Shown piece by piece: positions 46,803-64,000 of a DNA stretch of 64,000 nt. Location: the IMG/VR virus record IMGVR_UViG_3300032315_000748. One strand, given 5' to 3'. This stretch comes from a virus. Made by a program: the position numbers and the translations under genes. Under the pieces are notes generated by a model. It did no database searches. It was not told the origin of the DNA and saw nothing but the letters and a program-made list of their open reading frames with translations. Position 1 is the stretch's first letter. Each line of letters begins with the position of its first letter.

Positions 46803-46874
46803 TGCGGAGTGGGCAAGTGGTATGCCATCAGACTCATAATCTGAAGATCGTAGGTTCAATTCCTACCTCCGCCA
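46803..46874 (+). tRNA. tRNA-Met (CAT), initiator-like
   Basis: TCAGA-CTCATAA-TCTGA anticodon arm, GTAGG-TTCAATT-CCTAC T-arm, unpaired 1:72 (T/C). Confidence 0.85.
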
Positions 46875-48131: not shown

Positions 48132-48160
48132 TTGACAGGTTAACAGATTTATGGTATAAT
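48132..48160 (+). promoter_or_regulatory. Consensus sigma70 promoter
   Basis: TTGACA-17 nt-TATAAT with TG extension. Confidence 0.85.
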
Positions 48161-48185
48161 TAATTCACACAACTTAAATGTGATT

Positions 48186-48386
48186 ATGGAAACTTTTACA
48201 ATTGAAGAATTTCAAAAAGATTTTGATAATCTTTTAGGAAGAGTTGAGACTGGTGAATCTTTTATGATTACTAGTGAAGGGAAGGAAGTTATTATAATGC
48301 CTGCTGAAGATTATAATTACATAGTTTATGGTGATGATATGGACGACCTTATCCGAATACACACGGATCACGAAGAAGGTAGTTGA
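48186..48386 (+). CDS. Phd/YefM-like antitoxin-fold protein
   Basis: METFTIEEFQKDFDNLLGRVETGESFMITSEGKEVIIMP fits the Phd/YefM pattern. Confidence 0.6.
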   Translation: METFTIEEFQKDFDNLLGRVETGESFMITSEGKEVIIMPAEDYNYIVYGDDMDDLIRIHTDHEEGS

Positions 48387-48411
48387 CAAAAAATCCTAGT
48401 TTCCATATACT
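48383..48411 (+). promoter_or_regulatory. Sigma70 promoter for the tRNA-like RNA
   Basis: TTGACA-17 nt-TATACT; predicted +1 near 48418. Confidence 0.75.
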
Positions 48412-48420
48412 AGGTCTTAT

Positions 48421-48508
48421 GGTCGTCAGAACAGGTGTTCAGAGGAGTCTTATAAACTCTTTGCCCCAGATTAGGGCCTTTGGCAGGGATCGTTACCCTG
48501 GGCGACTA
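48421..48508 (+). ncRNA. Non-canonical tRNA-like RNA, anticodon TAT
   Basis: Acceptor GGTCGTC/GGCGACT; D-arm GAAC-aggt-GTTC; GGAGT-cttataa-ACTCT; variable arm GCCC-cagatta-GGGC; T-arm CAGGG-atcgtta-CCCTG. Confidence 0.7.
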
Positions 48509-48570
48509 TTACTAAATACAACGAGAGAGTTTATTACTCTCTTTTTTAATATAATATTGTAAAATTTTTT

Positions 48571-49071
48571 ATGAAAATTGGTTTTAATTGTAGTTCATTT
48601 GATTTGTTTCACGCTGGGCACGTTACTATGCTCAAAATGGAAAAAGAATTATGCGACTATTTAAAAGTTGCACTTCAAGTTGATCCAACCGTAGATCGTC
48701 CTGGCATTAAAAATAAACCAGTACAATCTGCTTACGAACGTTATGTTCAACTTCAAGGATGCAAGTATGTTGATGAAATCCTTGTTTATGAAACAGAAGA
48801 AGATCTTCTTAATTTAATTCAATCTCAAACAATTCATATAAGATTTTTGAGTGAAGAATATAAAGATAGAGATTTTACTGCAAAGCAATACTGTATTGAT
48901 AATGGAATAGAATTGTTTTTTCATTTGAGGAGACATAAGTATTCTTCAACTGAAATTAGAAATAGAGTTCATTATCTTGAAGAACAAAAAAGAATAAAAA
49001 AATCAGAAGAAAATGTAATAGAACAATATTCCCCAGAAATTTTAGAAAAATATTCTATTAAAGATAATTAA
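48571..49071 (+). CDS. Cytidylyltransferase (TagD/RfaE-like)
   Basis: SFDLFHAGH, KPVQSAYER, YVDE, YSSTEIR. Confidence 0.88.
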   Translation: MKIGFNCSSFDLFHAGHVTMLKMEKELCDYLKVALQVDPTVDRPGIKNKPVQSAYERYVQLQGCKYVDEILVYETEEDLLNLIQSQTIHIRFLSEEYKDRDFTAKQYCIDNGIELFFHLRRHKYSSTEIRNRVHYLEEQKRIKKSEENVIEQYSPEILEKYSIKDN

Positions 49072-62504: not shown

Positions 62505-62625
62505 TAAGTCAGGAAACGAAGACGAATCTTTACGTTCCGTAACCTTCTGCAACCGAGATCATCAGAAGTAAAGCATCTCTCGTACCTATACTGGAGGGTG
62601 GTGTAGGAATACTGTACTTGTTCAG
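62505..62625 (+). ncRNA. PhotoRC-II-like structured leader, copy 1
   Basis: AACCGAGA..TCTCTC, GAGGGT-loop hairpin; direct repeat of 63868-63990. Confidence 0.6.
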
Positions 62626-63867: not shown

Positions 63868-64000
63868 AAGTCAGGAAACGAAGACAAAACTTTACGTTTC
63901 TTAACCTTCTGCAACCGAGACCATCAGAAGTAAAGTGTCTCTCATATCCGTACTGGAGGGTGGTATGGAAATAACTGTAACATTCAGTTCCCCCTGAATT
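63868..64000 (+). ncRNA. PhotoRC-II-like structured leader, copy 2 (probable psbA 5' UTR)
   Basis: AACCGAGAC..GTCTCTCATATCC..GAGGGTG..GGAAATA resembles cyanophage psbA leaders; the downstream gene is outside the window. Confidence 0.65.

Follow-up and report, generated by a model that had tools for sequence, protein, structure and literature searches.

An 88-nucleotide (nt) element at 48421-48508 on the plus strand of a viral DNA stretch (IMG/VR record IMGVR_UViG_3300032315_000748; the whole stretch of 64,000 nt is called the window here) was a real, conserved and unannotated gene for a non-canonical transfer RNA (tRNA) with the anticodon UAU. Its structure, its conservation, its invariant anticodon, its 3' end and a genomic position common with ordinary tRNA-Ile(UAU) genes were all directly observed. 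Judging from sequence, it was likely that the product served as a functional phage tRNA that was charged with isoleucine and decoded AUA independently of TilS, the lysidine synthetase. An earlier note on the window had proposed such a decoder among several readings, and it turned out to be the best supported of them: the UAU anticodon, U33 and A37 were invariant (A37 nearly so) in about 150 homologues, CCA was often encoded, AUA accounted for 18% of the isoleucine codons in DNA of 34% G+C, and a class I tRNA-Ile(UAU) occupied the same position in sister phages. To our knowledge, AUA is the only sense codon whose reading depends, in most bacteria, on a modification dedicated to it (lysidine). 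The ways in which phages get around lysidine show how the code is kept readable despite a difference in base composition between virus and host.

Structure of the 88-nt tRNA

The minimum-free-energy and centroid folds of 48421-48508 both gave a cloverleaf, and they agreed exactly with the anatomy that the earlier note had drawn. Its parts were as follows.

48421-48427 with 48501-48507, plus strand: acceptor stem of 7 base pairs (bp), G1-U72
48428, plus strand: connector, the single nucleotide A8
48429-48440, plus strand: D-arm, 4-bp stem and 4-nt loop AGGU
48442-48462, plus strand: anticodon arm, 7-bp stem and loop CUUAUAA (U33, A37)
48451-48453, plus strand: anticodon UAU (TAT in 152 of the 152 family loci listed)
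48463-48477, plus strand: variable arm, 4 bp and 7-nt loop CAGAUUA
48469-48471, plus strand: GAU (pseudo-anticodon) at the centre of the variable-arm loop
48478-48483, plus strand: linker CUUUGG, 6 nt
48484-48500, plus strand: T-arm, 5-bp stem and loop AUCGUUA
48508, plus strand: discriminator A73

The connector of 1 nt and the D-loop of 4 nt meant that the canonical two-nt connector (U8, N9) and the 7-11-nt D-loop were absent. The T-loop kept U55 and C56 but had positions 54 and 58 swapped to A and U. The window copy alone folded no better than its shuffled versions (z = -1.55), so the reality of the RNA rested on its homologues; a fold of 48412-48555, terminator included, gave z = -3.07. The sole Rfam match within 48300-48620, to OxyS (E = 6.6), was rejected as a chance match.

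Covariation and conserved positions

Homologous loci were collected from IMG/VR by exact-pattern scans with a variable-arm motif and with a D-arm motif of the window subtype, which together gave at least 152 loci. Since the first pattern fixed the variable-arm region as constant, the D-arm-picked set, chosen regardless of the variable arm (55 member loci, 23 distinct sequences), was used as an independent sample. About 60 distinct sequences were present among the family loci listed, nearly all of them exactly 88 nt long (three were 87 nt), and the exact sequence of the window's tRNA was found in five contigs.

An alignment of 59 distinct sequences yielded the same cloverleaf unaided in RNAalifold. 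Standard pairs filled 99.6% of the pair cells, against 39-45% when the partners were slid. Changes on both sides were seen in 17 of the 27 pairs, and all five helices covaried, including the 7/5 acceptor/T branch. Thus, compensatory changes were found among the homologues instead of the decay that the earlier note had named as the mark of a pseudo-tRNA. The same note had described the anticodon stem as extendable to 7 bp. It did fold in this way, but covariation backed the inner 5 bp only, as the outer G-U and A-U pairs never varied. An 8-bp acceptor stem formed by position -1 with A73 was also considered and rejected, T being present at -1 in only 66 of 106 contexts.

Several positions were invariant or nearly so in the alignment, namely A73, A8, the anticodon UAU, U33, A37 (at least 90% of sequences), the variable-arm loop and the linker CUUUGR. 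The anticodon loop had the consensus YUUAUAN with A38 as the majority base, and UAU was present in all 55 of the D-arm-picked loci (23 distinct sequences). G1-U72 was kept in 58 of 59 sequences, as was the GG of the D-loop NGGU. Likewise invariant or nearly so were the strand AGAG ahead of the anticodon stem and the strand UUU behind it. AGAG could pair equally well with the CUUU of the linker, a choice beyond the reach of covariation because all the bases involved were invariant. At T-loop positions 54 and 58, the usual U54/A58 was found in 54 of 59 sequences and a joint switch to A/U in the remaining five, the window included. The joint switch kept the 54-58 pair, and the same loop occurred in other phage tRNAs that scanners call. 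Finally, 15 of the 106 distinct contexts had CCA directly after A73, a rate some nine times higher than the 1.6% expected by chance, and this enrichment fixed the 3' end of the RNA.

Distribution and detection of the family

The family was common in freshwater and marine cyanophage contigs. According to BLAST, the element was also present in four phages cultured on Synechococcus and differing in kind (S-CBWM1, S-SKS1, S-CRM01 and S-SRM01), in all of which it was unannotated and often lay amid tRNA genes. ARAGORN called a tRNA-Ile(tat) in 106 of the 152 family loci listed and missed it in 46. Against the Rfam tRNA model (RF00005, gathering threshold 29 bits), the relatives from S-CRM01 and S-SRM01 scored 38.3 and 28.8 bits, and those from S-SKS1 and S-CBWM1 had no match. 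Since the family was unannotated in cultured phages and about a third of it was missed by tRNA finders, tRNA counts and codon-adaptation studies of cyanophages undercount it.

In prokaryotic genomes the variable-arm pattern gave no family member among the at least 120 matches listed. Two D-arm 18-mers searched against 185,579 prokaryotic species genomes gave 16 matches, only one of which was a genuine family member. It was located on contig NZ_JBBAKG010000001.1 of a Haliscomenobacter metagenome-assembled genome, within a 6-kb array of 20 tRNA genes (locus L245, 947-6568), and had an encoded CCA. A tRNA-Ile(GAU) in this array had the anticodon loop CCGAUAA. The array looked like phage DNA and probably came from a large phage or prophage outside cyanobacteria, an origin by which the family would not be limited to cyanophages. 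A literature search, beyond whose reach much of the subscription literature lay, found no description of a layout with a UAU anticodon and a GAU arm. The earlier note had itself passed over the GAU in the variable-arm loop, the covarying 54/58 swap of a minority subgroup and the existence of a large family linked to Phd/YefM.

A Phd/YefM-like gene and a locus common with ordinary tRNA-Ile(UAU)

In the window, the tRNA was the second member of a two-gene cassette with the following features.

48132-48160, plus strand: sigma-70-type promoter of the Phd/YefM-like gene, TTGACA-17-TATAAT with TG (12/12 consensus)
48180-48386, plus strand: small Phd/YefM-like open reading frame (ORF), 68 amino acids, GTG start at 48180, ATG at 48186
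48383-48411, plus strand: the tRNA's own sigma-70-type promoter, TTGACA-17-TATACT (11/12 consensus)
48395-48414, no strand assigned: inverted repeat CCTAG-N10-CTAGG around the -10 hexamer (unique in the window, 0.04 expected by chance)
48421-48508, plus strand: the 88-nt non-canonical tRNA(UAU) (folds, covariation, homologues)
48523-48549, plus strand: intrinsic terminator, an 8-bp hairpin (48523-48543) followed by a T-run

Both the promoter of the tRNA and the terminator-like hairpin downstream had been proposed in the earlier note and were recovered here, with the 88-nt RNA beginning 9 nt past the -10 box. Among 125 distinct upstream regions from the 88-nt family, 36 had a promoter resembling that of the window's tRNA. 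The TTGACA of the tRNA promoter overlapped the stop codon of the upstream ORF, which matched Pfam PF02604 at 36 bits (cut-off 29.8) and PHROG 375, a Phd-like antitoxin.

In 101 of 140 family loci, a Phd-like homologue (35-60% identity) ended no more than 61 nt upstream of the tRNA on the same strand, and the genes beyond the pair varied (15 families upstream and 30 downstream). A reverse test started from 80 IMG/VR loci (L289-L368) that were selected by the Phd-like protein and by nothing else. Downstream DNA was sufficient at 75 of them, and at 72 of these a tRNA with a UAU anticodon lay within 130 nt. These 72 tRNAs comprised 27 of the 88-nt type, 41 ordinary class I tRNAs of 72-76 nt and 4 long ones with a normal D-arm and a GAU arm. 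A short-armed class I tRNA(UAU) cannot be of the Leu, Ser or Tyr type, and its presence at the same locus was therefore the strongest argument for an isoleucine reader of AUA. In phage S-SM2, for example, the order was tRNA-Pro, the Phd-like gene, tRNA-Ile(UAU) and tRNA-Met, with the tRNA-Ile annotated as such in RefSeq.

The cassette spanned T4-like cyanophages and the siphovirus S-SKS1, with at least three tRNA bodies, and no toxin gene stood beside the Phd-tRNA pair. More distant Phd-like genes of S-PM2, S-CAM4 and S-H9-2 occupied the same syntenic place with no adjoining tRNA, so that the adjacency may be inherited gene order. The cassette in S-SKS1, an unrelated siphovirus, was a point counter to mere inheritance.

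Some loci carried traces of more than one tRNA body. In S-CRM01 (locus L003) a complete long-armed tRNA(UAU) whose D-arm was normal (2404-2493) was followed about 10 nt further on, at about 2505-2555, by a 3' fragment of a window-type tRNA that ran from the variable arm to A73, was about 91% identical and had the T-loop AUCGUUA. The fragment looked like a scar left when one tRNA body was replaced by another. At L345 and at four other family loci, two tRNA(UAU) genes that differed in body type stood in tandem. In 68 loci, small HNH endonuclease genes (cluster 2, e.g., L258 3521-3826) were located no more than 3 kb from the tRNA, and such endonucleases may help to move the cassette between phages.

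An equivalent of the inverted repeat around the -10 box was present in 32 of the 36 promoter-bearing relatives (e.g., L006, L018, L031, L038 and L077). The arm sequences differed yet stayed complementary, as in CCAGATC/GATCTGG, CCAAGTC/GACTTGG and CAGGTA/TACCTG, with CCTAG/CTAGG in the window. The repeat could serve as the operator of a dimeric protein, or it could form a hairpin where the Phd-like mRNA ends. Possibly, the Phd-like protein controls the tRNA through this palindrome over the -10 box. A copy of CCTAG...CTAGG at the Phd-like gene's own promoter, as expected under autoregulation, was not found.

Proposed decoding of AUA and isoleucine identity

We infer the transcription, processing and isoleucine identity of the tRNA, and the role of its GAU arm, along the following lines. 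The gene would be transcribed early from its own host-type promoter, and the transcript would be trimmed to the 88-nt tRNA ending in A73 and completed by CCA addition. It would then be charged with isoleucine, most likely by the isoleucyl-tRNA synthetase (IleRS) of the host, and would read AUA with a UAU anticodon that bears little or no modification, so that no lysidine synthetase would be needed. In GC-richer picocyanobacteria AUA is rare and is read by a single lysidine-dependent tRNA. The AT-rich phage would thereby obtain an AUA decoder that its GC-richer host makes sparingly. Codon use was counted within the window only, where AUA made up 221 of 16,847 codons (13 per 1000).

The body of the tRNA is probably derived from an ordinary cyanophage tRNA-Ile(UAU), with the D-arm cut to 4 bp and NGGU, one connector nucleotide left and an extra hairpin in the variable region. 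Its core is probably rebuilt from the invariant strands AGAG, CUUU and CUUUGR. The added hairpin, whose 7-nt loop shows GAU and whose stem has C:G where pair 29:41 would be, copies the main anticodon-arm identity marks of the ordinary tRNA-Ile(GAU), and it may help an IleRS of the Escherichia coli type to accept a U34 tRNA that is otherwise poorly charged.

The bacterial identity set for isoleucine includes C29-G41, G34, A35, U36, A37, A38 and A73 (PMC9976931). A73, A35, U36, A37 and A38 were all present in the window, and A73, A35 and U36 were invariant in the whole family. Position 34 was U, so that neither G34 nor lysidine-34 was available, and the triplet G-A-U occurred only in the variable-arm loop. 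Pair 4:69 was C:G in the window and A:U (35), C:G (21) or G:C (3) in the family; pair 12:23 was C:G or A:U, and the D-loop was too short for the D-loop marks of isoleucine. Two problems of a UAU tRNA are known from E. coli, where IleRS charges UAU poorly because of its tryptophan W905 and the ribosome lets such a tRNA read AUG as well (PMC3575796). Three cyanobacterial IleRS sequences kept W at the site equivalent to W905.

A number of observations weighed against an isoleucine-charged decoder. The three IleRS sequences were not from the real host. The E. coli isoleucine marks U12-A23, G16, D20 and D21 were missing, as was C4-G69 in many members, and the long arm together with A73 would also fit leucine or tyrosine identity. 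In the window, ARAGORN called only a tRNA-Gly and a tRNA-Met and left the 88-nt element uncalled, and RF00005 had no match to this copy at E up to 10, in line with the warning of the earlier note that scanners may miss it.

The GAU-bearing variable arm

Among the 23 distinct sequences of the D-arm-picked set, the variable-arm loop was CAGAUUA in 20 and contained GAU in all 23, and the stem pair third from the loop was C:G in all 23. The variable-arm pair 46:54 had switched once from C:G to G:C, supporting the stem. In the true anticodon stem, C29:G41 was present in 29 of 30 distinct class I tRNA(UAU) sequences, compared with 6 of 70 distinct long-armed ones, and the window had A:U at 29:41.

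One tentative interpretation of these patterns is that the recognition marks for the synthetase have moved to the extra arm. The GAU hairpin might then act as a substitute anticodon arm for a W905-type host IleRS, with the UAU arm left for the ribosome to read. The AGAG strand, by pairing with one CUUU strand or the other, could possibly be the switch that enables such an arm swap. If the GAU arm does recruit IleRS, nature would here have moved an identity element for a synthetase onto an arm of its own, a case of interest for tRNA identity and for the engineering of orthogonal tRNAs.

Several points weighed against this interpretation. The GAU loop was no faithful anticodon loop, since A stood in for U33 and U for A37. 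On a normal L-shaped tRNA, the anticodon-binding domain of IleRS is out of reach for a 4-bp variable arm, and the idea of a handle for the enzyme therefore requires a rearranged fold. Among phage tRNA-Ile(GAU), C29:G41 was present in only 8 of 12, and the 29:41 contrast rested on few independent lineages. Class I tRNA(UAU) without a GAU arm evidently work in sister phages. A more radical version, with the GAU hairpin as the true anticodon arm, was rejected, as its loop lacked U33 and had U at 37, and relatives of the S-CRM01 type placed the hairpin in the normal variable-arm position.

Relation to known tRNAs

The 88-nt tRNA would work like the known TilS-independent tRNA-Ile(UAU), in a new structural form. 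It had UAU, U33, A37, A38 and A73 in common with the tRNA-Ile(UAU) of Mycoplasma mobile and lactobacilli and with that of S-SM2, as well as the presumed lysidine-free reading of AUA. The S-SM2 gene was also in the same place, after a Phd-like gene and before a tRNA(CAU). These known types are ordinary class I tRNAs of 72-76 nt in which the D-arm is normal, the variable loop is short and C29:G41 is kept, whereas in the cyanophage tRNA of 88 nt the connector was 1 nt and the D-loop 4 nt long, the anticodon stem was extended, and a GAU hairpin and a 6-nt linker were present. In M. mobile the charging problem of tRNA-Ile2 is solved by an altered IleRS with Arg865 (PMC3575796); in the cyanophages, the tRNA itself rather than the IleRS may carry the fix.

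The long variable arm, the tetraloop D-arm, the lengthened anticodon stem, the UAU anticodon and a toxin-antitoxin neighbourhood were reminiscent of allo-tRNA(UAU) (Mukai et al. 2017, PMC5389517). According to that paper, allo-tRNAs have an 8/4 or 9/3 acceptor/T branch and mostly G73 or U73 (serine-type), and their hosts are soil Acidobacteria, Clostridia and Proteobacteria; the 88-nt family was found in cyanophages. The text consulted described no GAU loop for allo-tRNAs. Membership in this class was rejected, because the 88-nt family was strictly 7/5, with full covariation, and had A73. A long arm combined with a UAU anticodon is also known from the nematode nev-tRNA-Ile(UAU), a eukaryotic tRNA that is derived from tRNA-Leu, retains the determinants of leucine identity and receives leucine (Hamashima et al. 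2012, PMC3333845). Unlike it, the 88-nt family had no sign of descent from tRNA-Leu.

Alternative explanations

One alternative, which we regard as unlikely, was a tRNA mimic with a part in the conflict between phage and host and none in translation. Such an RNA could, for instance, distract an anticodon nuclease of the host or some other toxin aimed at tRNAs (a decoy), or replace the tRNA that is lost (a spare), and it would work with the Phd/YefM-like antitoxin homologue. The tight linkage seen from both directions (101/140 family loci and 72/75 Phd-chosen loci) would suit this role, as would the different flanking genes around the pair and its occurrence in the unrelated S-SKS1. At least three tRNA bodies with one constant anticodon could reflect an arms race. 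Furthermore, Mukai et al. (PMC5389517) found genes for allo-tRNA(UAU) in the neighbourhood of toxin-antitoxin systems, and six variants that they tested in E. coli showed no activity in translation. On the other hand, the pair had no adjoining toxin gene, and the Phd-like genes of S-PM2, S-CAM4 and S-H9-2 stood without a tRNA. The features needed for decoding and charging were all conserved (the 7/5 branch, U33, A37, the contacts of GG to U55-C56 and A73-CCA), and a tRNA(CAU) in 79 of 147 loci together with tRNA-Leu(UAA) in some of them was the pattern of a codon-supply cluster.

It was quite improbable that the element was a class II tRNA charged by a synthetase blind to the anticodon, of which leucyl-tRNA synthetase (LeuRS) would be the likeliest. 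Leucine (or tyrosine or serine) would then be inserted at AUA, either as recoding by the phage or as deliberate mistranslation of the host. A long variable arm with A73 is indeed the bacterial Leu/Tyr pattern (PMC9976931), the long-armed nev-tRNA-Ile(UAU) was charged only with leucine in vitro (PMC3333845), and the isoleucine marks U12-A23, those of the D-loop and the anticodon-stem pair C29-G41 were missing here. In a test for class II membership the arm was present, but UAU in all members and the 4-nt D-loop did not fit, and A73 argued against serine. The sister phages held at the same position a short-armed tRNA(UAU) that is incapable of class II identity. Class II synthetases read the length and orientation of the arm and not the sequence of its loop. 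Yet the loop was invariant and spelled GAU. The 4-nt D-loop also lacked the tertiary features used by bacterial LeuRS, and the anticodon loop kept A37 and mostly A38, as in isoleucine tRNAs. Moreover, with 13 AUA per 1000 codons the phage's own proteins would be hit by such recoding.

A decaying pseudo-tRNA or chance cloverleaf, suggested by the z-score of -1.55, the two scanners that missed the window copy and the abnormal T-loop, could be dismissed with near certainty, as it was refuted by covariation (99.6% of pairs kept with many double changes), by an invariant anticodon and by a length fixed at 88 nt (87 nt in three distinct sequences) across about 150 loci listed, and the T-loop change was a paired 54/58 swap also seen in scanner-called phage tRNAs.

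Neighbouring genes

Downstream of the tRNA(UAU), 79 of 147 loci had a tRNA(CAU) within 400 nt, and 47 had one within 12 nt (e.g., L002 2592-2666, and L007). Pair 29:41 of 100 such neighbouring tRNA(CAU) was G:C in 53, A:U in 23, C:G in 22 and U:A in 2. As a speculation, the neighbouring tRNA(CAU) might offset the misreading of AUG by competition. The window's own tRNA(CAU) lay 1.5 kb upstream, at 46803-46874, and had a U1-C72 mismatch atop its acceptor stem. A BLAST search of it against E. coli, as a guide to whether it was of the Met or the Ile2 type, gave no match.

A tRNA-Leu(UAA) followed the tRNA(UAU) in some loci. Those called by ARAGORN beside the cassette (L002 2806-2882, L004 3143-3215 and L014 2985-3060) were 73-77 nt long, too short for the usual long variable arm of a bacterial tRNA-Leu.

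The window as a whole was cyanophage DNA and carried two PhotoRC-II elements (Rfam). Motifs of this kind are usual near the photosystem genes of cyanophages. The two copies were located at 62530-62620 and 63892-63982 and scored 48.5 and 59.5 bits, both above the Rfam threshold.

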